This document shows positions 12,040-58,167 of a DNA stretch of 64,000 nt, in pieces. A model generated the notes under the pieces. That model was not told the DNA's origin, ran no database searches, and worked only from the letters and a program-made list of their open reading frames with translations. Position 1 is the stretch's first letter, and every line of letters starts with the position of its first letter. The DNA comes from Candidatus Sericytochromatia bacterium. GTDB lineage: Bacteria > Cyanobacteriota > Sericytochromatia > UBA7694. The stretch spans positions 10,159 through 74,158 of the forward strand of contig JACYMC010000148.1 in the NCBI GenBank assembly GCA_015272195.1, read 5' to 3'. A program made the translations under genes and the position numbers.

Positions 12040-14973
12040 TCAGGGCGCAATCCGGTACAGATCAGGCTGATTTAACTGGTGGGTATAGAGCTGGTTATTC
12101 AGCCAGAGCAGACCCACCGTCGGCTGAAGACCCTGCAGCACGGGCACCAGATTGGTGCGCTGACCGCGCGGGTTCACACGTTCAATGCCCGTACCCAGTG
12201 TCAGATACAGGTTTGCGTCTGTATCCACGGTCAGATGACCGTTGCCGTTACCCATGTCCTTCGCAAAGTTGCTGTCCAGCAAATCCACGTCACCCTGGGC
12301 ATTCAGGGTCAGCCGGAAGACCGACAGGTTATTACCCAGTGAAACATACATAAAATTATCGTCTGCTGTCAGCTGAATATCCCGAATCGGGGTCGGCAGG
12401 CCTGAAGCGAGCGTTTCAGGACGACCAAAGATATTGCCATTGAAGCTCATTCTGACAATGCGTCCCTGGCTGGGCAGGGCCACATAAATCTGGTTAGCGG
12501 TGCGGTTATAGGCAATGGCACCCGGCTCGGCACCCAGATCGGCGGACTCAGCCGCTCGGCGGCTGAGGCGCAGTTCTGTCCCCGTACCGGCCACTTCATA
12601 ATGTGATATACGATAGGTGGGGCGAATATCGGGCAGCTCCCGGTTTTTGCCCGCCAGGGTGGCGTCAAAATTGCTGATTAAGAAATTCCCGGCGCTGTCC
12701 AGGGCCACATCTCTGAAGATCGAGTCATGGGTGATATCTGCTGCCACATCACGCGTCAGCACATTGCCATTGCCATCAAAATTCAGAATACTGGAGGCTG
12801 AGCCCAGCTGAGACGTCATCAGAAAGTGATTGCGTACCGTGTCCAGCGTATAATGCTCTGAACGGCCATTGCCGTTCAGGCGGGCCTGGCTCAGGGCGCT
12901 CAGGCGGGGAAAGAGGGTAAACGAGCGATTGTTATTGCTGGGCACATTATCGGTGGTGACCTGTACCTGGGCTTCGGTTGGCAGCTCACTCAGTTTGCTG
13001 GCCAGACCGTCGGGTACGGGCGCCACCAGTGTGCGCCGATCTGTCGAAACGCTGCGAGGCTGGCTGCTGGCCTGCCCATAGTCTGTGATAAAGGTGATGC
13101 GGTTATTGGCCAGCGTGGGGTCAAAGCCTGCGCCACTGACGGTGATGACCCGGTCTGCAAAGGGGGCGTCGCGGGTAATGACGGTTTCCTGCATCACGCT
13201 GGTGACCACAGGTCCAGGTCCACCAACCACAATCTGGGCCTCAGAGCGGTTTCCGGCTTCATCCACGGCCTCAATATTAAGCAGATCCCCGGAGTCTGCC
13301 GCCAGACGGCCTTCAAAAGCGCCCGCTTCGGTGGTCTGCAGCTGTACGGCGTTGCCCAGTTTGGGGCCTGTAATGATCAGGGTCACACGGCCCTGGTCCT
13401 CAATTGCAGCGGTACCACCGGTGATAATGGTTTCAAAAGACTGACCGCTGGGGTTGCGGGCCACAATACGGTCTGTGACCACACGAGGGTTGAGGGTGTC
13501 GGTACGGATATTGACCAGGGTCGGCAGACTGGCATCTCCGCCCACAATCGAGCGCACGCGCAGCGCGTGATTGGAGTTGCGCTTGAGCGGCACCTGAATA
13601 CTGTAGTTGCTTTCGCTGGCGCCCAATGCCACTGATACGGGCTGGGTACCGCCCTCCACGGTGACCAGGCTGCCGGTCTGGGCTGTGCCCTGCAGCACCA
13701 CAAAATCTTCAGCCGTTACGGGCGGTACATTGTTGACCGTGGGCCCTGGCACACCCCCGGCAGCAGCCAGGTTATTGCGCACGGTGGCGTCACTCTGTAT
13801 GACGGGCTCAATCACCGAAAGCACGGCTGAAATATTATTGGCGCCGCCCAGTGCGGCCCCGTCGGTGCTGCGCTGAACGGCGTCCAGAATGGCAATGATT
13901 TCAGGGGCTGAAAACTCACTGATGGGCACCTTGGGGCGGCTGAGTACCGTGCCATTATTGATGATCAGACGGGTGGTCATTTCGCTCAGCGGCGAGATAT
14001 CCAGCTGGGCACTGCCGCTCAGCATAGCGCGCATCAGACTGGGACCTGAACCCACGGACACCACAAACTCACTGCCCAGCTGGGCTTCTGCGGGCAATAC
14101 AAAAGAATACGAGCCATCTGAGCGGGTGCGGGCCGTGGCCAGCGGCAAACCGACCACATTGCCATTGTTATCAATGCGCGAAAGCGTGACCGCCACATCA
14201 GAAGAGACCGCCTGCAGGCCGGTCAGGGCTTCAGCCGGAGGCATCAGAAACTGATCAATGCGAAATCCAGGGGCTGCAGCTACCCGGCCGTTGGGCGCCA
14301 GCACGCGACCAGACACCACGCGGGTCAGTAATTGGTCCAGGCGGGTGGTCAGGGTGGCATTGGCTTTGAGGCTGGAGAGGGTGTTAGAGAGGGCATTGGC
14401 AAGGTCTACGGTGGAATAATCAATGCTCTGGGTGCCCTGCAGCGAGAGCTGGCGGGCCTCTTGGATCACAGTGACAGGCACAGAGAGCAGCGGCTCCCGG
14501 CGGTCAACCATTAACTGGACCATCGCGGTGGTCACAGGGGTTAAATCCAACTGTTCCTCGGTCACAAAATTGCGCAGATAATTGCCCGTGGCATAGTTGC
14601 CGGCTTCCAGCACCAGATTGGTGGCTGGCAGGGTCATATCGGTGGCCGAGACATCCAGGGTGTAGCGGCCATTGGCATCTGTGCGTCCGGTGGCAATCGG
14701 TTCGCTGGAGACCGGGCGACCCTCGTCATCAATGCGCAGCAGGCGCACTTCAACGCCCGCCGGAACGGGCACCAGACCCGTGGCCGCGTGGGCATCTGTC
14801 ATCAGCAGCCCCAGCGGGTCAAAGCTCATTTGTACCGGGCGAATCGACTGGTCCTGCTGAGGAACCATCACGCTGCCCTGGAGTCGGTAAACATCAAGGG
14901 TCACTTGCTGTGGCGGCTGACAGGATAAAATCAGGAGAGATGCTGCGCTGGCCAGGGCGAGATAGCGTTTCAT
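12040..14973 (-). CDS. Large (977 aa) secreted lipoprotein with carboxypeptidase-regulatory-like/Ig-like modules and a C-terminal NHL/beta-propeller-like repeat region
   Basis: MKRYLALASAASLLILSCQ (signal plus lipobox). Repeated GRY(T/S)L...beta-sandwich-like segments. C-terminal repeats NQIYVAL / NFMYVSL / NLYLTLG are typical of propeller blades. Confidence 0.6.
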   Translation of the reverse strand: MKRYLALASAASLLILSCQPPQQVTLDVYRLQGSVMVPQQDQSIRPVQMSFDPLGLLMTDAHAATGLVPVPAGVEVRLLRIDDEGRPVSSEPIATGRTDANGRYTLDVSATDMTLPATNLVLEAGNYATGNYLRNFVTEEQLDLTPVTTAMVQLMVDRREPLLSVPVTVIQEARQLSLQGTQSIDYSTVDLANALSNTLSSLKANATLTTRLDQLLTRVVSGRVLAPNGRVAAAPGFRIDQFLMPPAEALTGLQAVSSDVAVTLSRIDNNGNVVGLPLATARTRSDGSYSFVLPAEAQLGSEFVVSVGSGPSLMRAMLSGSAQLDISPLSEMTTRLIINNGTVLSRPKVPISEFSAPEIIAILDAVQRSTDGAALGGANNISAVLSVIEPVIQSDATVRNNLAAAGGVPGPTVNNVPPVTAEDFVVLQGTAQTGSLVTVEGGTQPVSVALGASESNYSIQVPLKRNSNHALRVRSIVGGDASLPTLVNIRTDTLNPRVVTDRIVARNPSGQSFETIITGGTAAIEDQGRVTLIITGPKLGNAVQLQTTEAGAFEGRLAADSGDLLNIEAVDEAGNRSEAQIVVGGPGPVVTSVMQETVITRDAPFADRVITVSGAGFDPTLANNRITFITDYGQASSQPRSVSTDRRTLVAPVPDGLASKLSELPTEAQVQVTTDNVPSNNNRSFTLFPRLSALSQARLNGNGRSEHYTLDTVRNHFLMTSQLGSASSILNFDGNGNVLTRDVAADITHDSIFRDVALDSAGNFLISNFDATLAGKNRELPDIRPTYRISHYEVAGTGTELRLSRRAAESADLGAEPGAIAYNRTANQIYVALPSQGRIVRMSFNGNIFGRPETLASGLPTPIRDIQLTADDNFMYVSLGNNLSVFRLTLNAQGDVDLLDSNFAKDMGNGNGHLTVDTDANLYLTLGTGIERVNPRGQRTNLVPVLQGLQPTVGLLWLNNQLYTHQLNQPDLYRIAP

Positions 14974-15274
14974 GGCAATTTGGTAAGCTCCTCAATAATT
15001 AACTTGCAGATTTTGGGTGTATCAGATGCAGTAAAAATAATAGCACAACCGTCTGACAATGCAAAAAAGCCCCCGGCTTAAATCTGCTCTTAATATTTGA
15101 GTGTGTGTGTTTTGTTTCTTGTTAAAAAATAATTAAGCGGGTTCACTTCGACAGGTGTACATGCCGATATAGGACGCGTAAGAGTGTGTTTTTACTTTTA
15201 CTTCAATCCCTACCGGCACCAAAGTCTCAGGTTCCTGGGCTCAAGATTTTCAAGGTATTCACAGGAGTGATGAT
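14974..15274. promoter_or_regulatory. AT-rich 301-nt divergent intergenic/leader region shared by the 977-aa lipoprotein-kinase operon and the giant-protein operon
   Basis: Far lower GC than the flanks. Contains a (GT)5 run (~15099-15110), a GCCGATAT element (15163-15170), and an AGGAG RBS 7 nt upstream of ATG 15275. Confidence 0.5.
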
Positions 15275-18200
15275 ATGACGAGTATTTTTTCCGGCAATCT
15301 CTACAATAACTATGTTAAAGACCAGAATACCGCTCGTCTGCAAAGGTTTGATGTCAACCGCTTTAACGCCAGTATTCCCGCTTTGTCAGAGCAAAGCCGC
15401 CGGGAGCAGGAGCTGCGTGAAGGCCTCGAGTACCACCAGGCCCGTATGGCCGATCTGCAAACCAAGCTTAACGAACTGACCGAAAAGCTCAATAACCTGT
15501 ATCGTCAGTTTATTGACTCGCAGGTCATGTTTCAGCGTGTAGGCCCCAGCAACAAGTATCACGGTACCAGCGATATGACCAACCGGCTGCGCAATGCCAC
15601 CGATGAAACCACGCCTTTCAACACCGGCCACCCGGCCGGTGTCAACGGCCTGTTGCCCTACGACAGTCCTGAGCGCATCCGCAACTACACCTATAATCCC
15701 TTCTTCGGCTCCAAGGCCATTGATGAAAGTGACGTCACTCTCAACCGCACCTTCTGGCGTGAACCCAACATCGTGCTGGAGGATGCCTATACCGAAAACG
15801 GGGCCTTCTGGTCCACGGTCTCTTACCTCTGGGGCTGGGATCTCGACCGCATCAATGCCACTTACGTCACCACCAATGATGATGAGCCTCTGCGTGGCAA
15901 CACCCATCTGCGCCTGAATAACACCGGCGGTCTGGGTCCCGGCACGGTGATCACCATCGGGGGTACCGAATACACCGTTTCCAATCTGGTGACCTACGAA
16001 GACAAAAACGGCAACACCGTCACCGATGTGCTGATCCCCCAGATCATCAGTCTGCCGGATGTCGGCACCACCGTCACCTGGGCGGCTGGCAGCGCAGAAG
16101 TTCAGACCGGCACCTTCCGTGAAACCTATAACAACTTACAGATCAATACCACCGCGCTGCAGCCCAACAAAGAGCAGCATCCGCCGGTGCGTACGGGTGA
16201 CCGCATTCCCATTGTCAACCAGAATGACCCCCGCGTCCCGCCGCCTGCGGTCAACTATCCCTTTCTGGCCATTGATGGGATTCGCCCGGGGGGCGCGGAC
16301 TTCAGCCACGCCCAGAACACCGAAGGCCGCAACGAAGTCGGCCAGGACAGCCTGAACTGGGGCTGGGAGTTTGACGATCTGCCCCTGGCGCTGGAAGTGA
16401 CCGGCACACGTCAGGATGCCAATGGTAATATTGTGGCCAGCGGTTACAAGGTGGTCTATGACATTCCCCGCACCCATCCCCAGTACGCGCGCTACCGGCA
16501 CCTCGACGGCACCGAGCCCATGATCATTGATGCGCCCACGGCGATGGTCAAAAACCGCATTCATCAGAACAGCTTTGACTATTCTGGTTTTATCGAACTG
16601 GGGGATGGCAGTTTTAACGCCAGTTATTCTACTATTCTCTCGCCCCTGCCAGGCCGTACCAATGCCGGTCACCCCAGCGGCACCAATGTCAGCCCCTACC
16701 CGGTCGACTTCCGCAACGAGTATCTGCACGCGGGCAATTACGCCCAGGATAGCAGCGGCAACTGGAACCAGAACCCGGCAACCTCCACCGCCCGCACTTA
16801 TATCGAGCTCAGTTCCTGCTCCCCCTTCAGCCTGGGTGCCAATACACACGTTTCATTCAACTACGATTATACGGTCACTCAGAATGCCGTTTCAGGCTTT
16901 TACAAGAGCCCCTCAGATGACGGTGCCGTACCTGGTACCTCAGGCAACGGCTTTCTGGCGCATACCTGGAGCGGTAGCAGTGTCAGCAACCCTTATCGCG
17001 GTTCAGTCGGAGGGTCGGGCCCGTTTGAGCCACCCCCACCTTATGCCGCTGTTGGGGCTACCTGGCCCGGTGGTCCCAATGCCTTTGAAGGTTACCCGAT
17101 TAACCGCGATTTTATTCAACCCGGCGTCAGTCTTCCCGAGACAGCGGGACAATTTGGGGTGATTCTCGGTGCGGTTAACACCGCTGGTGACCCCTTATCT
17201 GACCCGCGCTATGACCCCTTTCACTGGGGCGCGGGGATTGTCAGTCCGGGTATTGCCTCCGCGATTGAACCGACCAACACAGGCAATGGCGGCAATGGGT
17301 TGGGTCCGTTGCGAGTCAACAGTGTCGCTGCGCTGAACCTGGGCGGCTTGCCTGCCAATATCACGGTCAATGGCAATCCTTACACGGTCACCAGTATTGT
17401 TGGCAACACCATCTTCACCAGCACGCCCATCTCAGCCGCCGACCTGGCACCAGGCAATACGGTTGTGGGTACTGACGGCGTCAGCTCAACGGGCGTTGCT
17501 GTGGGCAATACCGGCAACGGTAGACCCAGCGCACTGATTGTTGGCAGTCCCACCACTTTTGGTATTGGGACCTTTGTTGGCGTCGACGGCTTCGTTGGAA
17601 CCTATGAAGTCGTTGGCTACACGCTGGCAGATGGTACAACCCCGGGGACTCCTCCTCCGGGCGATCCGGGCGGTCTGATTCTGAACCCTCCGCTCAGTGG
17701 TTTTCCAACCAGTGGTAATGTCTTTATTCCCGGCACGGGCGGTGGCGCCCCGGTGGGCGGTGGCTCTGATGAGTCTCTGCGTCTGGTCATGTCGCAGGAA
17801 CGTGAGCTGGGCAACCCGGCCACGCTTGAGAATGACAAGCTCTTTTTGCATGTGCTCTTTGATGGCGATATTCATGGCATTGATATCAACATCCGTGACT
17901 TTAAGATTGTATCCTACAGCTTTGGCAATCAGGGCACCTGGGAAAACGGCCTGTATAACCCGCTCAACGACACCACCCTCGGCAATGGTCCGCTGGACGT
18001 CACAGGCGATAACAGCCTTAGCGTTCAGAACGATGTGATCAACAAATACCAGGCCGATAAGTATAACTTCACCCAGTTTCATAACGAGTACAATAACGCG
18101 GCTGAAAATGGCGATCTCAAAGATATTGTGCGCAGCCCGTATGAGTATGCCTTGTTTAATATTGGCGCAGACAGTGTCAGTGGCGAATCTTCTTATCTCT

Positions 18201-21200
18201 ATGGTGAAACCTGGGTCGATATCAACAACCGTCGCATCAACCTGGGATTGGATGATTACAACAACAACACCCACCAGCCCGACTGGGCCAATGGCGCCGG
18301 TGAATCCACTTTCCAGGGCGGTGCCGTTACCGCACCCGCGACGGATCCCAATAACCCCAACTTCTTTTTGAGTGACAATGTGCAGGGCGTTTATGGTTTT
18401 ATTGCCCCTGTACACCCTGGCGATAGCTGCATTCAGAACACCCCCGGTGTGATTCAGACTGCGCTGAACGCCACAGTGGATGATGCGCTGCCCTATACCA
18501 CCCACCGTTACGAAGATCGCAGCCCCAATCACCTGTCAGCAGATCCTGCCGATCCCATGCGCACCTCGACGCCCAACGCCGGCGTGATCGCCGCCGCCGT
18601 GCCCAATTATTATGTGGGTACTGATGGGGTCAACTACACCAAAGCCAACCCCGGTATTGGTGATGGCGTGGTCGATCGCATCATGGGCGGCGATGATATC
18701 GACTACCGCCTCACAATCCCTACCACTGATCTCAACGTGCTGCAAAAAGAAAATGACATTGTGTTTAACTTTGGCAGCTTGCCCACCCGCAACTACTCCA
18801 TTGGCATTTACGAGCCCTTTATGGAGTACCGCAGCGTGCCCGGCTACCAGACCGTTGCGCGCTATCGCGTTGACGAAGCGGGCAATATCTACGACCGCTT
18901 TGGCGAAGGTTACTACGATCCCAATGATCCTGTCGATGCAGTGATCATGCAGGAGCTTTACCCCACCCGTGAACTGGGCAGCGGTACCAGTGCCGTGCCC
19001 CTGGTCAACGGCCAGGTCAGCAACTTTGATGGTACTTACGACAATCAGGGCAACTACGACCCCATCGACAGCGGCCTGCTCGGTCACAACCGCTTTTCAG
19101 AGCTGGGCGATGACTACAACCTCTTTGACTATGTGCCCGATCTGAAGGTGGATCCCTTTGCCGGGGATCCCAATATTCTGCGCGGTGAAGTTTATGTGGG
19201 CTCTTTGCCCACCAACTTTTACTATTACCGCGAAGGGCTCGATAACTCGCTCGACGGTCCCACCGGCGATTTGGCGGCGGGTGATCCCAATGGCCCGCTG
19301 CAGAATAACTTTAACCGCCAGGCTGCCCTGAACTTTGACGGCCGTTCGACCAATGTGGACGGTCAGTTCAACAGCCAGCACACGATTGTCTACAACACTA
19401 CCATGCCGACCTTCTCGACCGTCATGCTCGGTTACGCTGAACAGGATGCCCGCCTTAACAACCAGAAGGCCACCACCACCTTTGCTACCTGGGAAGGCTT
19501 CCCTGGCATGGGTGCGCCTACGGCCCCTGCCGTCCGACTCATCGGTACCACGGGTACAGTCGATAATGCGCTGGACGCCCTGGGCTTAAGCTACGATAAA
19601 TTTGCTGAAATGGATAACAATTCATCGATCACGGTGGATACACGCGTCGACTCCAGTCGCCAGGGCCATCTGCTGATTTATGAGTATGCCCCTGATTACA
19701 GTCAGGAGCCTATTCTGCGTACGGCCAATGTCATTGCCAACCCCACGGGCACGGGCGCGGCCTACGGCAACGGTAACGGTGGAAGCGTCTGGCTGAGTGA
19801 TGTCAGTTTTATTCAGGTGGGTGATGTGCTGACCTTTGATGATGGGACTGGACCCCGCACCAAAATTGTGACCGAACGCAACCTGACTGGCCCAGGCAAT
19901 GCAGGCTCCATCCGCTTTGAGGCAAATCAGCCAAACCCAGGAGATAACGTTCCTGTTGAAGGACCCATTACATTCGGCGTCTTCCGCAAGCGTGAAGCGG
20001 TGATGCGTGCCATTCCACACGCGATTCCGCTGCCGCTGGATCCCACAGATGATCCCTTTGTGTTTGACTCTTACAACGTCAAAACCACCATGGCCCGTAC
20101 CGGCTCGGTTTATGATCCGGTCAGCGACACAACAATTGTGCATGTTGACAACGCAGCGGCCTTTTTAACCTCACCGATTCCACCGACCATGACCATTGAG
20201 ATTGGCGCGCCGCCTTATTACACGGGTACCATTACCTCATCGGACGTGGATATCACCACCACGCCGAATATTATCCGCGTTCCTGGCAACGTGTCCCCGC
20301 TGCCGGTGTATGATACCCCGGTGGTCATGCGGGGGCCCCAGTTTACCGTACAGGTCGCTGACGGCGATGCGCCCAACTCTCAATTCACTATTACCTATGA
20401 CGACCGGGGCACCAATCTGCCGGGCAATATTGCCACGGTTGAGTTGTCACCCGAAATGGACCGGGCGGGCCGCTTTCTGGGTGATGATGCCCGTACGGTT
20501 GCCGATACTGAAACGGCCAACGTGGCGCCAGAGTACTTTGCCGGTTCACCCCCGGGTTATGTGCAGCCCGATGCGCAGATCAACCTGCAGCTGGTGGCCC
20601 AGGACAAAGACGGCAACCAGCAGCCGCGTCGCCTGCGTGAAATCCGTGTGACCATCGATTCTGGTGAGCAGATTATTCTGGGCCCCACGGGCGCCATTCG
20701 CCAGTATTATGGCACCAATGCCGCCTCTTTTAACGGCGATGGCACAGCAGCCAATGGCACACCCGATCCCAATGAACCGAATGGCATCGATATCAACGAA
20801 GCCTGGCCTGTGGCCCTCTACGACAAGTTCAACGATTTGCTGAATCCCACCTCCACAGACGATCTGGGTATTTCAGTGGGGTACTATCAGGGTATTCTGG
20901 ATGGTGCCACCACCACCGTGATTCCGGTGACCACTGTCGGTGAATTTGAGTTTGCCGAAGGCAAAGAAGTCACCATCAATGGTGAAACCCGTATCATTGA
21001 TACCGTGGACACTGGAGCCAACACCATTACTCTGACTGAGCCCCTGACCCGTCCGCCACGGGTGGGCGATCGTGTGAATCTGGGCAATAGCATCGGCACA
21101 GAAGACCTGATCATGTACCTCAACCGCAGCCAGGCCATGTCAACCAATGCGCCGATTGAAATTGAAATGGTCTGGCAGGACTATGAGGTGACGGGTTATC

Positions 21201-21562
21201 CGCCCACCACCACTTTACTGGCTGGCACCTATATAGAGCAGGTGGGCTTCAGAAAACCCAATCCCGGTGATGCCCCACAGGACGCCGACTACGATGCGTT
21301 GAACCACCTGGTGGTCAACAAAGGCCGCAGCGGTGGCTCAGGCGATAACGCCTTTGTGCAGGAACTGAAGCGCATTATTGACAATCCTGAGTACCAGGAG
21401 TTGCTGCGCTACGACCTGATGAAGAATGTGTTTATTTCACATGCTTCCAACGATCCCTACAACAACGTTGTGGCCTCCAAGCTGATGTTGACCTGGGATC
21501 GCAACCGCCGCCGGACAGAAATTCAGCTGACGTCGTTTACGGCCTTTTATAAGTCCGCCTAA
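15275..21562 (+). CDS. Giant (2095 aa) hypothetical protein, Asn/Gly/Thr/Pro/Asp-rich, with an N-terminal coiled coil and no signal peptide
   Basis: A single uninterrupted ORF with a strong RBS. aa ~35-90 are a heptad coiled coil (SEQSRREQELREGLEYHQARMADLQTKLNELTEKLNNLYRQF). A Gly-rich low-complexity tract lies at ~aa 650-830. There are at least four copies of a ~25-aa motif: ITIGGTEYTVSNL, ITVNGNPYTVTSI, VGDVLTFDDGTGPRTKIVTE, VTINGETRIIDTV. No recognisable catalytic motif. Confidence 0.75.
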   Translation: MTSIFSGNLYNNYVKDQNTARLQRFDVNRFNASIPALSEQSRREQELREGLEYHQARMADLQTKLNELTEKLNNLYRQFIDSQVMFQRVGPSNKYHGTSDMTNRLRNATDETTPFNTGHPAGVNGLLPYDSPERIRNYTYNPFFGSKAIDESDVTLNRTFWREPNIVLEDAYTENGAFWSTVSYLWGWDLDRINATYVTTNDDEPLRGNTHLRLNNTGGLGPGTVITIGGTEYTVSNLVTYEDKNGNTVTDVLIPQIISLPDVGTTVTWAAGSAEVQTGTFRETYNNLQINTTALQPNKEQHPPVRTGDRIPIVNQNDPRVPPPAVNYPFLAIDGIRPGGADFSHAQNTEGRNEVGQDSLNWGWEFDDLPLALEVTGTRQDANGNIVASGYKVVYDIPRTHPQYARYRHLDGTEPMIIDAPTAMVKNRIHQNSFDYSGFIELGDGSFNASYSTILSPLPGRTNAGHPSGTNVSPYPVDFRNEYLHAGNYAQDSSGNWNQNPATSTARTYIELSSCSPFSLGANTHVSFNYDYTVTQNAVSGFYKSPSDDGAVPGTSGNGFLAHTWSGSSVSNPYRGSVGGSGPFEPPPPYAAVGATWPGGPNAFEGYPINRDFIQPGVSLPETAGQFGVILGAVNTAGDPLSDPRYDPFHWGAGIVSPGIASAIEPTNTGNGGNGLGPLRVNSVAALNLGGLPANITVNGNPYTVTSIVGNTIFTSTPISAADLAPGNTVVGTDGVSSTGVAVGNTGNGRPSALIVGSPTTFGIGTFVGVDGFVGTYEVVGYTLADGTTPGTPPPGDPGGLILNPPLSGFPTSGNVFIPGTGGGAPVGGGSDESLRLVMSQERELGNPATLENDKLFLHVLFDGDIHGIDINIRDFKIVSYSFGNQGTWENGLYNPLNDTTLGNGPLDVTGDNSLSVQNDVINKYQADKYNFTQFHNEYNNAAENGDLKDIVRSPYEYALFNIGADSVSGESSYLYGETWVDINNRRINLGLDDYNNNTHQPDWANGAGESTFQGGAVTAPATDPNNPNFFLSDNVQGVYGFIAPVHPGDSCIQNTPGVIQTALNATVDDALPYTTHRYEDRSPNHLSADPADPMRTSTPNAGVIAAAVPNYYVGTDGVNYTKANPGIGDGVVDRIMGGDDIDYRLTIPTTDLNVLQKENDIVFNFGSLPTRNYSIGIYEPFMEYRSVPGYQTVARYRVDEAGNIYDRFGEGYYDPNDPVDAVIMQELYPTRELGSGTSAVPLVNGQVSNFDGTYDNQGNYDPIDSGLLGHNRFSELGDDYNLFDYVPDLKVDPFAGDPNILRGEVYVGSLPTNFYYYREGLDNSLDGPTGDLAAGDPNGPLQNNFNRQAALNFDGRSTNVDGQFNSQHTIVYNTTMPTFSTVMLGYAEQDARLNNQKATTTFATWEGFPGMGAPTAPAVRLIGTTGTVDNALDALGLSYDKFAEMDNNSSITVDTRVDSSRQGHLLIYEYAPDYSQEPILRTANVIANPTGTGAAYGNGNGGSVWLSDVSFIQVGDVLTFDDGTGPRTKIVTERNLTGPGNAGSIRFEANQPNPGDNVPVEGPITFGVFRKREAVMRAIPHAIPLPLDPTDDPFVFDSYNVKTTMARTGSVYDPVSDTTIVHVDNAAAFLTSPIPPTMTIEIGAPPYYTGTITSSDVDITTTPNIIRVPGNVSPLPVYDTPVVMRGPQFTVQVADGDAPNSQFTITYDDRGTNLPGNIATVELSPEMDRAGRFLGDDARTVADTETANVAPEYFAGSPPGYVQPDAQINLQLVAQDKDGNQQPRRLREIRVTIDSGEQIILGPTGAIRQYYGTNAASFNGDGTAANGTPDPNEPNGIDINEAWPVALYDKFNDLLNPTSTDDLGISVGYYQGILDGATTTVIPVTTVGEFEFAEGKEVTINGETRIIDTVDTGANTITLTEPLTRPPRVGDRVNLGNSIGTEDLIMYLNRSQAMSTNAPIEIEMVWQDYEVTGYPPTTTLLAGTYIEQVGFRKPNPGDAPQDADYDALNHLVVNKGRSGGSGDNAFVQELKRIIDNPEYQELLRYDLMKNVFISHASNDPYNNVVASKLMLTWDRNRRRTEIQLTSFTAFYKSA

Positions 21563-24500
21563 ATGCAGACCTGTCCGCAGCATCACCTTAAAACGGGTAA
21601 AATCTGCCGGGAGTGTGGCCATGTGTATCCCCTGGCAACAGGGGATACTTTTGGTGCACTGGAAGTCATTGAAAGAATACCTGGGCCTGCGCGGCTGCAT
21701 CTTTACCATTGCCGTCACCAGGATCAGGACTATGCGCTCTGGGAAGGGCTCGAAATTTACCAGCCCACTTACCGTGAGCAGATGATTCGTGTGCTGGACG
21801 CACAGCCTTTGTCCGGTGTGCCTGAAGTGCAGAATTTCTCGATTGATGATATGCCCAGTGAAGCCAATATTTTATATCTGTTGTACGACTGGGCTCCCTA
21901 TGCAAGCAGTCAGACGCTCGATAGCCTCAGTCAGCAGGCGGGTATTTTGCCGGCTGAGCAGATCCATCTGATCATGACGCAGCTGCTCGAACTTCTGGCT
22001 GAACTGGAGTTGCGCCAGTGGGTCTGGAACAGCTTTCACAGCCATTACCTTTATTTTGATCCAGAACAGCAGAAGGTTTTCCCAGGGCTGGCGTTTTATG
22101 CCCAGGAGTTGACCCCAGGTGCCATCAGTCCGGTGGTGTTTAAAGGTTTTTCACCGCCTGAGCAGATTCGCTCCGGCGAGGTGTTTCGGGAAACCGATCG
22201 CTTTGGCCTGGCCATGACGCTGGTGCAGTTGTGTACAGGTCTCTCGCCGGCGCTCTGGGCGCCTGATTTGCCCGGCTTCAAACGCTATCAGTACATCTGG
22301 GGCAAAGCGCTGATGGATTTTTATACCCAGCTGATGCAGCCGGTAGAACAGGTGCCCGCCAGCCGTCTGATCGACAGCTGGAAAGCCCTCAAAACAGATC
22401 TGCTGTCGCATAAAATCCTGCCGGCGATGCAGGAAGAGCTCCGGGTTTTTAATGCTGGTCTGCAGGCTTATACGGCTCAGGACCTCAATACGGCCCTCGA
22501 AAACTGGCTCAGTGTTCAGCGTGGAAGCCTGCACAATCCGCATCTGGCTGCTTATATTGCGCGCGCCCTCTGGAAAAAGCACCTGAAACATGAGGCCCTG
22601 GCCTGGTATGGCGAGGCCATCCGGCGTGAATCCCTGGGGCTGTTTTATCAGGAGGTGGGCGCCTGCTATGAAGCCGACAAGCAGACAGAACGGGCAGAGC
22701 GCGCTTACAGACAGGCCGTGACACGCATCCCCTATATGCCAGAGCCCTATAACGGCCTGGGTCGTTGTGCCAAAAACCGCCAGAATTTTAAAACCGCCAA
22801 ACTGTGTTTTGAAAAATCACTTCAGATTCATCCAACCTGGGAAGCCCGTGAAATGCTGGATGAAATCGCCGCCATTCAGTTTCCGACCACGCACAAAAGC
22901 AAACACCAGCCCCAGACCCCGACCCGGGCTTCTCTGCAAATTAACCTGACGCCAACCCTCTGGGAGCATTTTGATAAAAACAAAAATATTGCCGCCTACC
23001 GCGTCAAAGAAGTGGGAGAGCAAATTGGCCCTTATACCATTGACGCGGTTTTGCGCGAGCGCAATCTGGTCAAAGGCAACCGATCCTCTATTTATCGGGT
23101 GCATAACGCCGCTGCCGAATCGTTTTTTGTTAAGGAAGTGCTGCTGGATGTCTCTGGCAGCGGGACCTTTTACAAAGAAAAAGTTCTGTTGCAAAAGCTT
23201 AGTCATCCGGGTATTCCTCCCGTGCATGACAGCTTTGAAGCCAATGACTGTGGCTATCTGGTTCAGCCTTTTCTGCAAGTACCCTCTTTGGAGCAGTATC
23301 TGAATACCGAAGGCATTTTACCTGAAGCTGAAATCCGCGCGATTTTGACGCAGGGCTTGCAGCTGATTGCCTATCTGCAAAGCCAGCAGATCATTCATGC
23401 CGATATCAAACCCGAAAACCTGCACTGGGATGCTGCCGCCCAACAACTGTATCTGACCGACTTTGATATTGCCGTTGAGCACAAGCCCGCACGTCCCCAA
23501 AACAATTTTTCTGTGGGGGTGACGGCGGGTTTTGCTGCGCCTGAACAACTTGAAATCAAAGCGGTTAACCTCACAACAGATGTCTTTGCCCTCGCACTGA
23601 CCTGCCTCAATCTGAGCACAGGCTTAAATCCCAAACTCTTTTATCACCATCAGAAACGGGCTTACAGATCCTGTACCCAACTGCCGCAGTTGAGCCGGCC
23701 TTTTGGTAAATTTTTAGACAAACTGCTGACCTGCGATCTGAAACAACGCGCTCAGCGTTATCAGCAGGCCCAGGACCTGTTAGCTGAACTCCAGCAGGCC
23801 TTTGCCCAGGCTCCCAAAGTGCTGAGTAAAGCCCAGCGTGAAGTGGGGCATCTGATTCGGGAAGTGGCCCTTTGTCATCAGGATCCAGAGCGACTGGCTG
23901 CCATTGCAGCCCAGTTGCATCACAAGAGCCAGGACGCCAAAGTTGACTATCTGCTGGCTTTTGCTTATCTGGATCATCAACAGTGGGATGCGGCCTTTGT
24001 CGCCTACGATCGGGCCATGGCCAAAGATCCCCGCTGGCTGTTACCCTATTACGGCAAAAGTGCGGCCCTCGCCGATCAGGGCAAGCATTCTGATGCCATT
24101 GCCCTGCTTAAAAAAAGCCTTGATTACTGCAAAACCGAGAGCCTGCCTTACAGCTTGCTGGCCCGCTGCTTTATTGCCCAAAAAAAATTCAAACTGGCGC
24201 TGCAGCTTTATCAGAAAGCCTTGAAACTGGACCCCACCAACAAACAAATCTATCTCGATACCGCCCATTTGCACATCCGTCTGGGTGGATTTGAAAGCGC
24301 CCGCAAACTCTGTGAGCAGGCCCTGGAGTATGCCCCGACATCGGCCCGGGCCTTTCAGCTCCTGCAAATGATCTGCGGTATTCAGGAAAACTACCCCGCA
24401 GCCATTGAGTATGGTGAGCGGGCTGCCATGCTCAGACCCCATCGCATCAATGTTCAGTATGATCTGGGTTTCTCATATTTTCGCGCGGGTTACTATATCA

Positions 24501-24712
24501 AAGCGCTCAAACAATTTCAGCGCTGCCTGGAGTTGGATCCGGAGCATGTGCAAAGCCTTTATTATCTGGCTGACAGCTTACTGGAGCTGGGCCGTCTGGA
24601 AGAAGCGCGCAAATACTTTCAGAAAGTTCGTTTACATGCTGAACTGCAGGAAGCCGTCAAGCGTAAACTGGCGTTAATTGAGGACAGTCTATCTCAAAAC
24701 ACAGCAGCCTGA
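21563..24712 (+). CDS. Multidomain signalling protein: N-terminal Zn-ribbon, degenerate (pseudo)kinase domain, TPRs, active-looking Ser/Thr protein kinase domain, C-terminal TPR array
   Basis: 1049 aa. The ATG abuts the giant-protein TAA (TAAATG). CPQHH...CRECGH is a zinc ribbon. The first kinase-like domain lacks HRD/K. The second has VKEVLL (beta3 K), IIHADIKPENLHW (~23394-23417), LTDFDIAV, GFAAPEQL and DVFALALT. TPR-like repeats lie between the two kinase-like domains and at the C-terminus (e.g. AYLDHQQWDAAFVAYDRAMAKDP). Confidence 0.8.
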   Translation: MQTCPQHHLKTGKICRECGHVYPLATGDTFGALEVIERIPGPARLHLYHCRHQDQDYALWEGLEIYQPTYREQMIRVLDAQPLSGVPEVQNFSIDDMPSEANILYLLYDWAPYASSQTLDSLSQQAGILPAEQIHLIMTQLLELLAELELRQWVWNSFHSHYLYFDPEQQKVFPGLAFYAQELTPGAISPVVFKGFSPPEQIRSGEVFRETDRFGLAMTLVQLCTGLSPALWAPDLPGFKRYQYIWGKALMDFYTQLMQPVEQVPASRLIDSWKALKTDLLSHKILPAMQEELRVFNAGLQAYTAQDLNTALENWLSVQRGSLHNPHLAAYIARALWKKHLKHEALAWYGEAIRRESLGLFYQEVGACYEADKQTERAERAYRQAVTRIPYMPEPYNGLGRCAKNRQNFKTAKLCFEKSLQIHPTWEAREMLDEIAAIQFPTTHKSKHQPQTPTRASLQINLTPTLWEHFDKNKNIAAYRVKEVGEQIGPYTIDAVLRERNLVKGNRSSIYRVHNAAAESFFVKEVLLDVSGSGTFYKEKVLLQKLSHPGIPPVHDSFEANDCGYLVQPFLQVPSLEQYLNTEGILPEAEIRAILTQGLQLIAYLQSQQIIHADIKPENLHWDAAAQQLYLTDFDIAVEHKPARPQNNFSVGVTAGFAAPEQLEIKAVNLTTDVFALALTCLNLSTGLNPKLFYHHQKRAYRSCTQLPQLSRPFGKFLDKLLTCDLKQRAQRYQQAQDLLAELQQAFAQAPKVLSKAQREVGHLIREVALCHQDPERLAAIAAQLHHKSQDAKVDYLLAFAYLDHQQWDAAFVAYDRAMAKDPRWLLPYYGKSAALADQGKHSDAIALLKKSLDYCKTESLPYSLLARCFIAQKKFKLALQLYQKALKLDPTNKQIYLDTAHLHIRLGGFESARKLCEQALEYAPTSARAFQLLQMICGIQENYPAAIEYGERAAMLRPHRINVQYDLGFSYFRAGYYIKALKQFQRCLELDPEHVQSLYYLADSLLELGRLEEARKYFQKVRLHAELQEAVKRKLALIEDSLSQNTAA

Positions 24713-26191
24713 CTAAAACAGCAGGCCGTCAAAATCAGCGTCAACAAAGTGAAAGAAACAGACGCTGACCCGTGAGCCGCTGGGCAGAGGGTTGCGCCAG
24801 TGTGGATAACGGCTGCCCCGGTAGACAATGGCGTCTCCCATTTCCAGACGGACGGCTTCAATACCCTGCGGCAGCTCCAGATAAATCGGCCAGGCCTGTG
24901 CTCGGGTCTGCTCAGGATCTGTGTCCAGAACCAGTGAAACATTCCAGGCACATTGTTCCCGGTCGGTGTGGCGGGGCAGTCGGGCCCCTGAATGATACAG
25001 GGCAAAATAACAATAAGAAGCTTTCAGGGGTGTCTGGGTGATTTCTGAAATGACCGGATAAAACTGCTGGTGTAAAAACCGGCACATGGGCTCATTATGC
25101 ATGCCAAAACGATTGCTGACAAAGGGATCACCGTTTAGCAGATAACCTTCCTGGTGAATGCTTCGTAAGTAGTGTCTGGCTGCGGCAATCTGCAAAGGGT
25201 TCAGCAAACCGGGAATCACGCAGAAATCTGTCGCTGCAAGCTGTTTCTGCAGCGTCTGACGGTCTGGCCGGGACGCTGTCAGCAATAATCCGGCATCCTG
25301 CCAGGTTCGGCGCTCGGCCTCGGTCAGATCCGTTAGGGGCAGCTTACCTTCCAGCAGTGCCTGCAACCGCTCTTTATGTTCTGCAGGCACCTGAAAGGGG
25401 GTCCAGATGTGGTTGCGCGGATCTTTGAGCCAGAGCAGGGGTGGTTGCATCTGAATGCGGTCTGACACAAAGGGCAGTTGCACGGCTTCAGGTAAATCAG
25501 GACCCTCCTGCCAGCCCCAGCTGGGATTCAGCTGTAAAGATTCTGCCAGCGGCTGGACGCGCGCAGCATAAGGGTACAGCGGATCGTCTGCCTGCAGCCT
25601 GGGGGTATAAGATACCGCCTGCGGCACTTTATCGGGTGCACAGAGCAGGCCCAGCTGTTGCAGGATGCGGGCTTCCTGAACAGAGAAATGTTTGTGGGTC
25701 GCCGTAAAGAAGCGCCAGAGCAGACGGCAGATATCAGGCTGGCGTTCCCAGTCAAACAACTGGGCCCGCACATGCTGATGCCGCAGCGGCACGTCTACTT
25801 CCACCTGCAGGCGGGCCTGAAAATTAAAGCTCAGCCAATTTTGCTTGCTTTCTGGCGGCGGCTGGTAAGTTTGCAGTGCTGTTGATTCATCTGTTGCAGA
25901 GGCCAGGATGCCGCGTAGAGACAGTTTTTCAAAGGGCAATAAAAGCCCCATATGTCTGAGCAAGGCAATATCGGTCGCATGCAGCAAAGGCTGTTCTTCA
26001 GCCGGCTCAGAGGCTTGAAACAGGCTCCAGAAGATCTGGCAAAGTCGTGGATCGTCACTCCACTTGATAATAAAGGGTTGTTGGGGATCTGAATAACCAG
26101 GAACCCAGATTCCCAGCTTGAGATCGGCAAAAGGATGAATCACCCAGGGCATTACCTGAGGCCCCGGGTGAGACGTTGCCGGCATATGCAT
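24713..26191 (-). CDS. Hypothetical protein with a C-terminal Fe(II)/2-oxoglutarate-dependent oxygenase-like (cupin, HxD...H) domain
   Basis: 492 aa. C-terminus ...YHSGARLPRHTDREQ...(~50 aa)...RGSRYPHWRNP...RVSV gives an HxD...H facial-triad-like spacing, with an Arg/Ser downstream. The N-terminal ~300 aa carry three repeats ending in a GLLL motif (LLRHMGLLLPFEK, ILQQLGLLCAPDK, TWQDAGLLLTASR). The gene ends zero nt from the convergent kinase gene. Confidence 0.5.
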   Translation of the reverse strand: MHMPATSHPGPQVMPWVIHPFADLKLGIWVPGYSDPQQPFIIKWSDDPRLCQIFWSLFQASEPAEEQPLLHATDIALLRHMGLLLPFEKLSLRGILASATDESTALQTYQPPPESKQNWLSFNFQARLQVEVDVPLRHQHVRAQLFDWERQPDICRLLWRFFTATHKHFSVQEARILQQLGLLCAPDKVPQAVSYTPRLQADDPLYPYAARVQPLAESLQLNPSWGWQEGPDLPEAVQLPFVSDRIQMQPPLLWLKDPRNHIWTPFQVPAEHKERLQALLEGKLPLTDLTEAERRTWQDAGLLLTASRPDRQTLQKQLAATDFCVIPGLLNPLQIAAARHYLRSIHQEGYLLNGDPFVSNRFGMHNEPMCRFLHQQFYPVISEITQTPLKASYCYFALYHSGARLPRHTDREQCAWNVSLVLDTDPEQTRAQAWPIYLELPQGIEAVRLEMGDAIVYRGSRYPHWRNPLPSGSRVSVCFFHFVDADFDGLLF

Positions 26192-26196
26192 CCGGC

Positions 26197-28845
26197 TTAA
26201 AAAGCAGGTGCGACGGCGTTGCCGGTGTTGGCGTAGTTACCACCAATTTTAGGCCAGGGAGCGTCGGCCTTATTGGTGGCCAGCCCCTGAACATCCACTT
26301 TCAGTGAACGCAAATAGGTAAAATCACCATAATTGCCTGAGCGCGTTGTGATGTACATATAGCCATCGTGAAACGCATTGCCTGCAGAAAAGAAGCCGCC
26401 AGGAAATATCTGGCTTTTGACTTCACCGTCGACCGGATTTAACTCATAAATACGGCCATCCACAGTGGATGAGGCAATGTACAAGGCCAGACTGCCATCG
26501 GTTTTCTTGACCACGTCCGGTGAGCCAAAAAGCATCAGCGGAGGCCGCATCCGCCCGACCTGGGTTTTCCAGTTCAGAATCAGGGGATCGTTCCAGTTAT
26601 TGCCCTGCCGGAAAGAGTGCACTTCGCCGTAATCGTTGGCCACATAAATATGGGTTTCGCCGCCGATATTGGCGAGGGTTGGGGGAAAGTTGGTCTGGCC
26701 GGTTACCGCAAACTTGGCTTCGGTGGTATAAACCTTGGCCAGTTGACGCGATGCCGGGTGGTAGGCGTACAAATAGCCCTCAGAATCAAAGTTGTTGCCA
26801 CCGACATTAAACATTTTGTAGGCGGTGAAATACACGACCTCTTCGCCATTGGGCAATTGATCAATGACCGGGCTGCTGTTTTCGTGCAGCATCTCACCCT
26901 GTGGCAGGGGGAAGCGCAGGCGGCGCAGGTTGCCATAGACCTGCAGCTCTTGGTCCAGGCCATCGAGGGGATTGTTTTCGTTGACATCAATCACCACCAG
27001 CTCAGGCGCATTGGTTTCGTTGTTCTGGGCTCCCGTCAGGGCAAACAGGCGCTTACTGGGTACCGTTTCTCCGGTCACATTGCCGTCGGCATCTTTGATG
27101 GTGTCGGTATAGAGCTTTTCTGACAGAGCGCCACCTGTTGTAAAGTTCAGCTGAGAAGATCGTACGGGTAAGGTGTTGCCGTTATGATCCAGCTCATTCT
27201 CTATAAATTGACCGCCCAGGACTTTAGATGCTTTATACAGGGGGGCAAAGCCTACCAGCTGACCATCTTTGATTTTATAGATGCCCCGGAAGGGAAAATC
27301 AGAGTTTACGCCGTTAAATGCGGCATACACCACGTCGGTCTGTGCGCAGCCTTCGCCTTCGCGATCGAGCACCGGCACAAAACGCGTACGGTTCATATCC
27401 AGCAGGCGCGGGTTATCATCATCATGCGCACAGACCTGACATGCAGCGTCCGGATCGTCGGCCGGCTGGGCAAAATCATAACGCCAGAGGGTTTGCAGAT
27501 TATCCTGACGCAGAGCATAAACCGTGCCGTTGCCTGGTACGTTGCCTTCCAGATTAACCGGGTTGGCGTATCGGCGCGACATGACAAATACGGCTGGCTG
27601 CGATCCCGGGCCACCATTACAGCTGGTATCATCAGCAGTACGGGTCACACCCAGAGCAGGGTGAGGGCTGTCGATGCGGTTGAGATCGTTGCGGAAGACC
27701 ATGCCGCCAAACTGTCCATTGCCCAGCAGCTGAACAGCCTGGATGGTTTCCTGGCTGTCGCGGATGGTTACATCCAACACGCGGTTATTTAAAAACAGAC
27801 GCTTGGTCTCAGGGTTAAAGGCAAGGGTACCACCTGTCGAATCTCTTTGCTGCAAACGCTGCCGGCCGACCAGAAACAGAGGGAATCGGTAATCCGCTGG
27901 ATTGGCGTTTTGCCCTGATTCTGCGGTTAACTCAAGGGTGCTGCCCGCCAAAGAATGATCTGCCTGAATGATACCATCAGACAAATGTTCTGCAATTTTA
28001 AAGAAGTCAATATCGGCCAGTGAAATCGGGGGCGGCAGGGCCATGCCCTCCTCGCTTTCCGGCGTCAGTGCTTCAATACGCGAAAAGCGCACCAGACTGT
28101 TGCTGACCGGCAAAGCCAGTTCAGGCTCATTGCCACCCTGTTCCGTGGCCGGAAAATTAGCGGTAGGATTGCTGTCTGCTCCCGTAAAAGCATCGGCAAA
28201 AGCCTGAAGTTTATCGAGGTCCAGCTTGATCTGAAACTGAGGGTTCGACACTGTGCCGTCCAACTCGTAGCCGAGCTGCAGCGGTGATAGCGTGGTTTGC
28301 AGGGCTTCGAGAATGCGGGCTGCCACGGTGGTGCGCTGATTGATAACCACTTCTTCGGATGGAACGTGAAACGCTGCTTTAAGCTGCTGAATTTCACTCT
28401 GGTCATTATTATTCGAGTACAGACGGAGGGTTACCACCCAGTTAAAACCACCCGGTACATCGGCACCCAGCAGGAACTGATTGCCACTGACCGGTACAAA
28501 GCCGTTTTCGTCGGCGCCGTTGGCGTAAATAGGGGTACGTTGCCCCATGGCGTCTAAAAAGTACTTGTTCCAGATTTCAAGTTTGGCGTACTGGGCTGTG
28601 GCCACTTGCTGCGTGCTGAAGCCACCGCCTGCACCGGGTAAATCCACGCGAAAGCTCACCTGGTGGTTTTGCTGAGCGGCTTCCTGCTGTGCCTGGGCAA
28701 GCTGCTGGGCATACTGAGAGCTGACGCCCGACTGAGAGCTGACGCGCGGAGAAACCAGCGTTGGAGACGAGCCAGGAGCCATGCACGCTGATAAAGCCAA
28801 CGTCAAGGCGGCACTGAAAGCAAAACCTTTAGAAAAATACTTCAT
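26197..28845 (-). CDS. Secreted lipoprotein (882 aa) with a beta-propeller (PQQ/WD-like repeat) C-terminal region
   Basis: MKYFSKGFAFSAALTLALSAC (lipobox LSAC). A Gln-rich linker. C-terminal repeated GxxYxx/YVANDYGEVHSF / YIASSTVDGRIYEL blades. 5 nt upstream of the oxygenase gene. Confidence 0.6.
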   Translation of the reverse strand: MKYFSKGFAFSAALTLALSACMAPGSSPTLVSPRVSSQSGVSSQYAQQLAQAQQEAAQQNHQVSFRVDLPGAGGGFSTQQVATAQYAKLEIWNKYFLDAMGQRTPIYANGADENGFVPVSGNQFLLGADVPGGFNWVVTLRLYSNNNDQSEIQQLKAAFHVPSEEVVINQRTTVAARILEALQTTLSPLQLGYELDGTVSNPQFQIKLDLDKLQAFADAFTGADSNPTANFPATEQGGNEPELALPVSNSLVRFSRIEALTPESEEGMALPPPISLADIDFFKIAEHLSDGIIQADHSLAGSTLELTAESGQNANPADYRFPLFLVGRQRLQQRDSTGGTLAFNPETKRLFLNNRVLDVTIRDSQETIQAVQLLGNGQFGGMVFRNDLNRIDSPHPALGVTRTADDTSCNGGPGSQPAVFVMSRRYANPVNLEGNVPGNGTVYALRQDNLQTLWRYDFAQPADDPDAACQVCAHDDDNPRLLDMNRTRFVPVLDREGEGCAQTDVVYAAFNGVNSDFPFRGIYKIKDGQLVGFAPLYKASKVLGGQFIENELDHNGNTLPVRSSQLNFTTGGALSEKLYTDTIKDADGNVTGETVPSKRLFALTGAQNNETNAPELVVIDVNENNPLDGLDQELQVYGNLRRLRFPLPQGEMLHENSSPVIDQLPNGEEVVYFTAYKMFNVGGNNFDSEGYLYAYHPASRQLAKVYTTEAKFAVTGQTNFPPTLANIGGETHIYVANDYGEVHSFRQGNNWNDPLILNWKTQVGRMRPPLMLFGSPDVVKKTDGSLALYIASSTVDGRIYELNPVDGEVKSQIFPGGFFSAGNAFHDGYMYITTRSGNYGDFTYLRSLKVDVQGLATNKADAPWPKIGGNYANTGNAVAPAF

Positions 28846-33150: not shown

Positions 33151-33151
33151 T

Positions 33152-33772
33152 ATGCTGCCTCCGGAAGCCCTGTCTGCTCAGGGACTGCTCTATGTCAAAC
33201 GGCAGTTTCTGACGCTGGCAGAATGCCAGCAGCTTGTTTCAGATCTGCATCAGTCAGAGCACGCCCCCTCTCTGACTTACTACGCACATTCAGGCCCTGT
33301 GGTGGATGCCTCTTATCGCAGCACCCGTGAGATCAACGTCTCCAGGCACGTGAGAGATCAGGTGGTGCAAAAGCTGATCGTGTTGCATCAGGAAATGCAG
33401 GACTATTTTCAGCTCCAGTTTGTGAATATGGAAGGCCTGCAGTTTCTGAGCTACCAACCGGGTGACTTTTTTAAAGCCCACCGCGATAACCACAGCAGCC
33501 CCAATCCGCTGGCTGAACGCAAGCTAAGTTTGTTGTTATTTCTTAATGCGCCAAAAGAAGCGCTGACAGACTCGCTGCCAGCGGAGCTTTATGACTACGA
33601 AGGCGGGCTGTTGGTGTTTTATCGCCCGTCACGCCGTCCGCCTTACCAGCCTGTAGGCATGCCTTTACAGGTGGCTCCGGGCATGCTGATCGGTTTTCGG
33701 CCGGACGTTTTGCACGAAGTCACCCCCGTGATTTCGGGGCAGCGCTTTACCATTGTGACCTGGCTGTCCTGA
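33152..33772 (+). CDS. Prolyl 4-hydroxylase-like Fe(II)/2OG oxygenase (P4Hc/PKHD-type)
   Basis: 206 aa. The ATG lies 1 nt after the TPR-gene stop. YQPGDFFKAHRDN (HxD), LLLFLN, YEGGLLVF, DVLHEV (distal His), RFTIVTW (2OG-binding Arg). Full-length match to the P4H-alpha C-terminal domain architecture. Confidence 0.8.
   Translation: MLPPEALSAQGLLYVKRQFLTLAECQQLVSDLHQSEHAPSLTYYAHSGPVVDASYRSTREINVSRHVRDQVVQKLIVLHQEMQDYFQLQFVNMEGLQFLSYQPGDFFKAHRDNHSSPNPLAERKLSLLLFLNAPKEALTDSLPAELYDYEGGLLVFYRPSRRPPYQPVGMPLQVAPGMLIGFRPDVLHEVTPVISGQRFTIVTWLS

Positions 33773-53481: not shown

Positions 53482-53485
<4 letters not shown>
52625..53485 (+). CDS. Hypothetical protein (286 aa)
   Basis: The ATG immediately follows the upstream TGA. 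No recognisable motif. The 3' end overlaps the convergent spoVR by 4 nt. Confidence 0.45.
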
Positions 53486-54976
<1,491 letters not shown>

Positions 54977-54993
<17 letters not shown>

Positions 54994-58132: not shown

Positions 58133-58167
58133 GAAACTGCTCCTTCGCAATCAATCGTATTTACTGT

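Follow-up and report, generated by a model that had tools for sequence, protein, structure and literature searches.

The 64,000-nucleotide stretch of contig JACYMC010000148.1 analyzed here (the window; assembly GCA_015272195.1, Candidatus Sericytochromatia bacterium) contains on its plus strand a single open reading frame (ORF; 15275..21562) that encodes a giant protein of 2095 amino acids (aa). We found that this ORF is a real and constrained gene and founds a family confined to Sericytochromatia, whose giant, beta-rich members are very acidic and almost free of cysteine. Our data support the position of this gene at the center of a conserved, previously undescribed gene module that includes a beta-propeller lipoprotein and a Ser/Thr protein kinase. 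The giant protein may be exported independently of Sec as part of an envelope or surface structure, with a flagellar-type export gate as the likeliest route. We assign this interpretation, in which the propeller and the kinase would have the roles suggested by their gene context, a probability of roughly 0.45.

A giant protein family restricted to Sericytochromatia

A first-pass annotation of the window, made from the sequence alone, had described one long ORF with a strong ribosome-binding site, an unusual composition, and no signal peptide, and all three features were confirmed. The gene is preceded by a Shine-Dalgarno sequence (Table 1), and its product is rich in Gly (10.4%), Thr (9.0%), Asn (8.4%), Pro (7.6%), and Asp (7.4%), with only 1.5% Lys and 0.1% Cys. 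For comparison, ten other genes of the window encode 2.4% Asn, 5.1% Thr, and 5.8% Gly. The low pI of 4.4, the scarcity of Lys, and the presence of only two cysteines are typical of secreted beta-proteins. Both cysteines (C515 and C1052) are invariant across the family, which would fit a conserved disulfide. No hydrophobic segment was detected at the N terminus or anywhere along the giant protein (highest Kyte-Doolittle mean over 19 residues, 1.36), so that a Sec or Tat signal and a membrane anchor are both lacking.

When 5.8 billion proteins were searched, one identical entry, from a Candidatus Sericytochromatia metagenome-assembled genome (MAG), and 43 full-length homologues of 1692 to 2202 aa were recovered. 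When the 44 full-length homologues were aligned, ∼190 residues were invariant and spread over the whole length, and Met1 was conserved in at least 90% of the homologues. Relative to the 86%-identical orthologue from locus L038, the ratio of nonsynonymous to synonymous substitution rates (dN/dS) was 0.093 overall and ranged from 0.04 to 0.15 in every 200-codon window.

The taxonomic range of the family is narrow. Against 1.84 billion representative proteins, a HMMER profile of the N-terminal domain (200 aa) matched only 36 clusters, in which all named sources were Sericytochromatia. Among 185,579 species genomes, all 18 matches came from Sericytochromatia or Blackallbacteria MAGs. MAGs that carry the family include GCA_018780035.1, GCA_053550095.1, and GCA_014377495.1, and at least six MAGs carry two giant-family paralogues. 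The clusters matched by the N-domain profile include a compact subfamily of 860 to 930 aa, which by our reading of the sequences keeps the core sequence motifs and has one member also named Sericytochromatia. An 802-aa ORF in locus L024 represents a further shorter paralogue with the N-terminal helix, a YLW-like motif, and the C-terminal domain retained. Upstream of compact-subfamily genes and divergent from them, a gene for a ∼320-aa EF-hand Ca-binding protein was found in three loci (L025, 6369-9639; L026, 8818-9789; L039, 3514-4470). A word-indexed search with the profile of the C-terminal domain returned short fragments only.

No usable match for the giant protein was obtained in scans of Pfam, NCBIfam, PHROGs, and PADLOC, and when 20 diverse members were scanned against Pfam at E values up to 1, no family was common to more than two of them. 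Profile searches of the PDB with full-length, N-domain, and C-domain profiles also gave no match. The first-pass statement that the protein has no recognizable domain thus holds at the family level, and the family corresponds to none of the described families of adhesins or of flagellar, S-layer, or phage proteins.

Conserved blocks of the protein alternate with segments that are present in only ∼20% of the members (aa 201 to 280, ∼640 to 800, and 1481 to 1560). The N-terminal domain defines the family and invariably starts at residue 1. The two helices placed there in the AlphaFold2 (AF2) model (Table 1) agreed with the earlier suggestion of a heptad-like coiled coil in the first ∼90 aa. Lineage-specific insert 1 has an alignment occupancy of ∼0.2 and was modeled with block values of the predicted local distance difference test (pLDDT) of 73 to 90 over residues ∼211 to 280. 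Insert 2 (occupancy, 0.2 to 0.44), which is under purifying selection (dN/dS, 0.15), was modeled with beta strands, including the stretch at ∼740 to 800 (pLDDT, 64 to 90) that had been quoted as an example of low-complexity tracts, a description we therefore abandoned. In the C-terminal half (aa ∼1350 to 2095), the pLDDT of 10-residue blocks was mostly 75 to 96, with dips to 36 to 65. The terminal domain, which also occurs in the 802-aa paralogue, was modeled as helix-helix-strand-strand-strand. The giant protein is conserved, folded, and multidomain rather than of low complexity; its building blocks are ordinary small beta modules.

The dispersed beta-strand motif noted in the first pass survived in part. 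Three copies of the strict pattern [ILV]T[ILV]xGxxxx[VI]xx[ILV] (at residues 226, 696, and 1899) were found versus 0.013 expected by shuffling, two of the three within lineage-specific inserts, and looser copies lie near residues 1500 and 1640; significant similarity (E = 0.001) was limited to the pair at 226 and 696. The protein had also been called very rich in NxS/T sequons, but its 23 sequons compare with 24.2 ± 4.4 in composition-preserving shuffles, and only four are kept in at least 35 of the 44 homologues.

A conserved module with a lipoprotein and a kinase

Gene order was compared by clustering the ORFs of 23 related loci and the window (24 loci in total), followed by tblastn. A metagenome scan added 10 loci, only two of which had full 10-kb flanks. 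The most constant partner of the giant gene encodes a lipoprotein, which adjoins it in 21 of the 24 loci; the remaining three loci end on the relevant side. This partner family (∼725 aa) carries a PQQ/BamB-like beta-propeller in its C-terminal half and a lipobox-like signal in those listed members whose start is plausible, and its profile matched BamB chains in the PDB with E values of about 1e-10 to 1e-12, which identifies it as a family of lipoprotein propellers. Compared with BamB (YfgL), its closest relative, the partner shares the lipoprotein signal and the PQQ-like propeller but is about twice as large, has an extra N-terminal domain of ∼350 aa, and is encoded beside the giant gene and duplicated with it. 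It also differs from BamB in evolving fast: when the window is compared with L038, the propeller is only 56% identical where its neighbors reach 85 to 97% (977-aa lipoprotein, 96.6%; giant protein, 86%; kinase, 85%), and a 492-aa ORF reaches 71%. From these sequence comparisons, the propeller lipoprotein appears to evolve unusually fast, as would fit an exposed component.

In 15 of the 24 loci, the giant gene is followed directly by a kinase homologue. The kinase that the first-pass annotation had placed in the locus was confirmed as a Ser/Thr protein kinase with TPR repeats. Its catalytic motifs are intact (HADIKPEN at 612, DFD at 633, and APE at 659), as in Hanks-type kinases, and no transmembrane segment was detected in the window kinase. 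In the window and L038, the kinase ATG directly abuts the stop codon of the giant gene (TAAATG), and in L002 and L005 the called giant and kinase genes overlap by one boundary base. The stem of a hairpin located inside the window kinase gene (Table 1) is kept in L038 (about 16282-16305), and a terminator-like GC hairpin with a T-run occupies the spacer between giant and kinase genes in L004 (16160-16200). The hairpin may act as an attenuator and thereby determine the ratio of giant to kinase expression; with hairpins in the window kinase gene and at the corresponding position in L004, expression of the structural gene would be able to exceed that of the kinase.

The loci fall into several layouts. 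In type B loci, genes for an acidic coiled-coil protein and a polytopic membrane protein lie upstream, and the kinase and propeller genes lie downstream. In type A and C loci, the propeller gene is found upstream, and a membrane-anchored TPR protein or a kinase is encoded downstream. According to the synteny map, genomes with two paralogues each combine one locus of type B with one of type A or C. The window locus is B-like, and its exact layout recurs in L038, with the 977-aa lipoprotein upstream and the 492-aa ORF between kinase and propeller. No described counterpart of a BamB-like lipoprotein combined with a Hanks kinase with TPR repeats was found in the literature, and searches for flagella or motility in Sericytochromatia or Blackallbacteria returned nothing relevant. 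The earlier proposal that the giant gene is the center of an undescribed system is borne out by the conservation of the module.

A further first-pass claim concerned two 2-oxoglutarate (2OG)-dependent oxygenases in the locus, one of which was verified as a PF13640 protein (33137..33772). The assignment of the other, the 492-aa ORF (24713..26191), was not confirmed: its C terminus carries an HxD...H pattern and matched the Asp/Asn beta-hydroxylase family PF05118 below threshold (E = 0.11; 12.8 bits versus a cutoff of 22.6), and it had no PDB match. The N-terminal half of the 492-aa ORF resembles two copies of a ∼130-aa segment (...PRLCQIFWSLFQAS... and ...PDICRLLWRFFTAT...). Homologues of the PF13640 oxygenase were present in three other loci only (L004, L006, and L030). 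With sequons at chance level and the oxygenase in so few loci, we found no specific support for the idea that the giant protein is a heavily modified substrate.

Upstream of the gene for the 977-aa lipoprotein, the window encodes a PAS histidine kinase and a hybrid response-regulator/histidine kinase (8920-12002, minus strand). Four type B loci (L004, L011, L012, and L022) have a related hybrid kinase (cluster C41) at an upstream position as well.

Table 1. Features of the giant gene and its neighborhood, with coordinates in the window
Feature	Coordinates	Strand	Description
977-aa lipoprotein	12040..14973	-	Signal ...LILSC; no family; divergent from the giant gene; common only to L038
Shine-Dalgarno sequence	15263..15267	+	AGGAG, 7 nt before the giant-gene ATG; read from the sequence
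Giant gene	15275..21562	+	2095 aa, 226 kDa, pI 4.4, net charge ∼-116
Conserved N-terminal domain, aa 1-200	15275..15874	+	M[TS]SI[FY]SGxL; helices at residues 5-23 and 34-84 (AF2 model); YLWGWDLDRINATY motif
Lineage-specific insert 1, aa ∼201-285	15875..16129	+	Small beta module with motif copy ITIGGTEYTV
Lineage-specific insert 2, aa ∼600-830	17072..17764	+	GNTGNG...GTPPPGDPGG stretch and motif copy ITVNGNPYTV
C-terminal half, aa ∼1350-2095	19322..21559	+	Chain of beta-sandwich and beta-barrel domains (AF2 model)
Conserved C-terminal domain, aa ∼2009-2095	21299..21559	+	GxGRxGGS...ELKRIxDNPEY...KLxLxWDRxRR...QTSFxAYYKS
Ser/Thr protein kinase with TPR repeats	21563..24712	+	Pkinase 501-731, E = 1e-31
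GC-rich 10-bp hairpin followed by TTTTGG	21625..21648	+	62 nt inside the kinase gene
492-aa ORF	24713..26191	-	No family assigned; confined to the window and the closely related L038
Partner lipoprotein	26197..28845	-	Lipobox LSAC; ∼350-aa N-terminal domain and PQQ/BamB-like beta-propeller
Second PQQ-like propeller lipoprotein	29267..31282	+	Signal ...LISVSC; also in L038; possible accessory
TPR protein	31225..33150	+	Possible accessory; TPR genes also after the propeller gene in L006
2OG-Fe(II) oxygenase	33137..33772	+	PF13640, prolyl-hydroxylase-like, E = 7.5e-12; sporadic neighbor

Possible export routes and alternative explanations

From the lack of a Sec signal, the secreted-type composition, the diverged lipoprotein partner, and the coupled cytoplasmic kinase, we infer that the giant protein is an exported envelope or surface protein. 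It would leave the cytoplasm without a Sec signal and be built into a fibre, coat, or adhesin-like layer of the cell envelope or surface. On the periplasmic or outer-membrane side, the BamB-like lipoprotein propeller would serve in assembly or anchoring, and the translationally coupled cytoplasmic Ser/Thr kinase with its TPR repeats would control production or export, or hold the giant protein before it is exported.

Because of the gene neighborhood, we favor a flagellar-type type III secretion system as the export route, with its export gate as the most likely exit. In L005 and L016, which belong to two different MAGs, fliP-fliQ-fliR-flhB divergently adjoins the pair of propeller and giant genes. 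L024 (165-9286) encodes two paralogues (802 and 1367 aa), and behind each lies a separate gene for a TPR protein of ∼293 aa without a signal peptide. The L024 paralogues are 4 to 5 kb from two FlgE/FlgG homologues, one of which matches the FlgE chain 5jxl (E = 6e-12) as well as FlgG chains, the latter over nearly the whole length of those chains. Finally, in L027 a compact family member lies 1 to 7 kb from four FlgE/FlgG-like paralogues (300 to 341 aa; 13628-19517). Flagellar-gene neighbors thus recurred in three of ∼9 independent layouts, compared with a chance rate of ∼5% per layout, which is our rough estimate and not a computed statistic. Two side observations concern these loci. A 233-aa protein encoded between the L024 paralogues shares 58% identity with a 224-aa ORF that lies upstream of the L002 giant gene, and this L002 ORF ends in ...SFTSIIR, reminiscent of axial-protein C termini. 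In L027, the run of FlgE/FlgG-like genes is broken by toxin-antitoxin-like genes (Gp49/HTH, HEPN, and Uma2), and the 22-kb locus has no further flagellar genes.

Several observations weigh against this interpretation. Most layouts contain no flagellar gene within 10 kb, including the window, in which neither flagellar nor pilus genes were found. Profiles of the N- and C-terminal domains aligned to the co-located FlgE/FlgG-like proteins with hhalign probabilities of only 0.14% and 0.25%, respectively. The window protein and the 20 diverse members gave no Flagellin or Flg match in Pfam at E values up to 1, and the modeled C terminus is alpha/beta, not a helical D0 segment. The AF2 model itself is poor for aa 1 to 1130 (mean pLDDT, 53). 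Moreover, the compact subfamily and L024 have no propeller gene, so that this partner is not universal to the family, and the type A TPR partner has a hydrophobic N terminus and therefore is not a cytoplasmic chaperone there. Every source of the family is a MAG or a metagenome contig.

Membership of the giant protein in the flagellar axial family was rejected, since hhalign probabilities stayed below 0.3% and Flagellin_N/C, Flg_bb_rod, and Flg_bbr_C gave no match. Giant flagellins and hook-associated proteins resemble the family in lacking a Sec signal, in having conserved termini around a variable beta-rich middle, in occurring as two paralogues per genome, and in the export-gate or rod/hook genes beside some members. 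In contrast to them, the giant protein has none of the axial domains and no D0 helix in its modeled C terminus, and the giant family has dedicated lipoprotein propeller and kinase partners. A bolder reading, which we regard as rather improbable, is that a previously unrecognized surface appendage of Sericytochromatia has this family as its main extracellular component: a protein of nonaxial fold would be exported through a FliPQR/FlhB gate, and each paralogue would have its own outer-membrane lipoprotein and cytoplasmic kinase/TPR controller. A link to type IV pili was also considered and rejected. Only three type B loci (L002, 21538-23520; L004, 22587-24551; and L012) encode a PilB-like ATPase (MshEN and T2SSE domains), ∼5 kb away on the far side of the propeller gene, and the window has none.

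The main rival export route is a type I secretion system (T1SS), for which the giant protein would be an S-layer- or adhesin-type substrate lacking RTX repeats, recognized by an ABC exporter through its conserved C terminus and attached to the outer membrane with the aid of the propeller. We consider this unlikely. In common with T1SS-exported S-layer proteins and giant adhesins (such as RsaA and RTX adhesins), the protein is large, acidic, poor in Cys and Lys, beta-rich, multidomain, and without an N-terminal signal, and its ends are conserved. Moreover, a 590-aa ABC exporter (ABC_membrane and ABC_tran) is encoded after the propeller gene in the type B loci L008, L009, L017, and L019. However, these four loci have one common extended gene order and so probably amount to one observation, the ABC gene is missing from the window and most layouts, and no membrane-fusion or TolC-like gene was found in any locus. 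Neither the window protein nor the 20 diverse members matched RTX/HemolysinCabind. Whereas T1SS signals are usually poorly conserved, the C-terminal domain of the giant protein is folded, highly conserved, and also present in the shorter paralogue.

Alternatively, the giant protein could remain in the cytoplasm as a scaffold for, or a substrate of, the coupled kinase and the nearby oxygenases, a reading that corresponds to the modified structural substrate proposed in the first pass. The lack of a signal peptide is compatible with such a role, as are the cytoplasmic nature and translational coupling of the kinase, the PF13640 oxygenase in the window and three other loci, and the subthreshold hydroxylase-like match of the 492-aa ORF. 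Nevertheless, the composition of the giant protein is atypical for the cytoplasm, its most constant partner is a lipoprotein located outside it, and the sequon count does not exceed chance. Most loci lack oxygenases, and type A loci and the compact subfamily lack the kinase. For these reasons, a cytoplasmic role seems less likely to us than export and, on balance, doubtful.

Origin from a phage tail, as the receptor-binding fibre of a prophage, tailocin, or contractile injection system, is also less likely than export, and we consider it very improbable. The small beta modules of the giant protein, among them the units with the [IV]T[IV]xG motif, are similar to domains of the tail-tube, Dit, tailspike N-terminal, and CBM32 types, and weak PHROG tail-fibre and Dit matches were obtained for one distant relative (P0047). 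This likeness is confined to single domains, though: the window protein matched no PHROG, there was no global match to a tail fibre or tailspike, and phage, sheath, tube, or baseplate genes were absent from the loci whose genes were examined. The stable chromosomal synteny and the two paralogues per genome also argue against a phage origin.

Architectures of the type IX secretion system, autotransporter, TpsA, and SLH types were excluded because a signal peptide and the relevant domains are missing. An anti-phage defense function was discarded as well; the PADLOC matches of the kinase were generic, and the giant and propeller genes had none. Lastly, a pseudogene or chance ORF, raised in the first-pass annotation as a formal possibility only, is refuted by the low dN/dS (0.09 versus L038) and the intact homologues of 1692 to 2202 aa in dozens of contigs, and the ribosome-binding site likewise speaks against it. 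Overall, the giant protein has the outlines of giant Sec-independent surface proteins, such as giant flagellins and the S-layer proteins or adhesins exported by T1SS, yet it lacks every testable hallmark of membership in those families.

Wider genomic context and significance

Farther from the giant gene, the window contains a prkA-DUF444 (yeaH-like)-spoVR trio (53482-58150, minus strand), which is a conserved operon of stress and stationary phase, and a homologue of the ubiquinone-biosynthesis protein Coq4 (36291-37127, plus strand; E = 9e-30). A glycosyltransferase with TPR repeats and a GT41 (O-GlcNAc-transferase-like) domain is encoded 29 kb from the giant gene (50537-52624, plus strand), and L003 has two similar genes (21216-25564) no more than 10 kb away from its type A giant gene.

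Sericytochromatia are an uncultured, nonphotosynthetic sister lineage used to reconstruct the origin of Cyanobacteria, and to our knowledge almost nothing has been reported on their cell biology. Strong purifying selection on a protein of ∼2000 aa, together with its duplication along with a lipoprotein and a kinase in most genomes, points to a major lineage-specific envelope structure. If the link to the flagellar gate is true, this gate would export a building block that does not belong to the axial family, and passage of a nonaxial fold through FliPQR/FlhB would represent a new structural solution based on the flagellar export machinery. Should the link fail, the family would still offer a testable target for first structural and localization work on Sericytochromatia.

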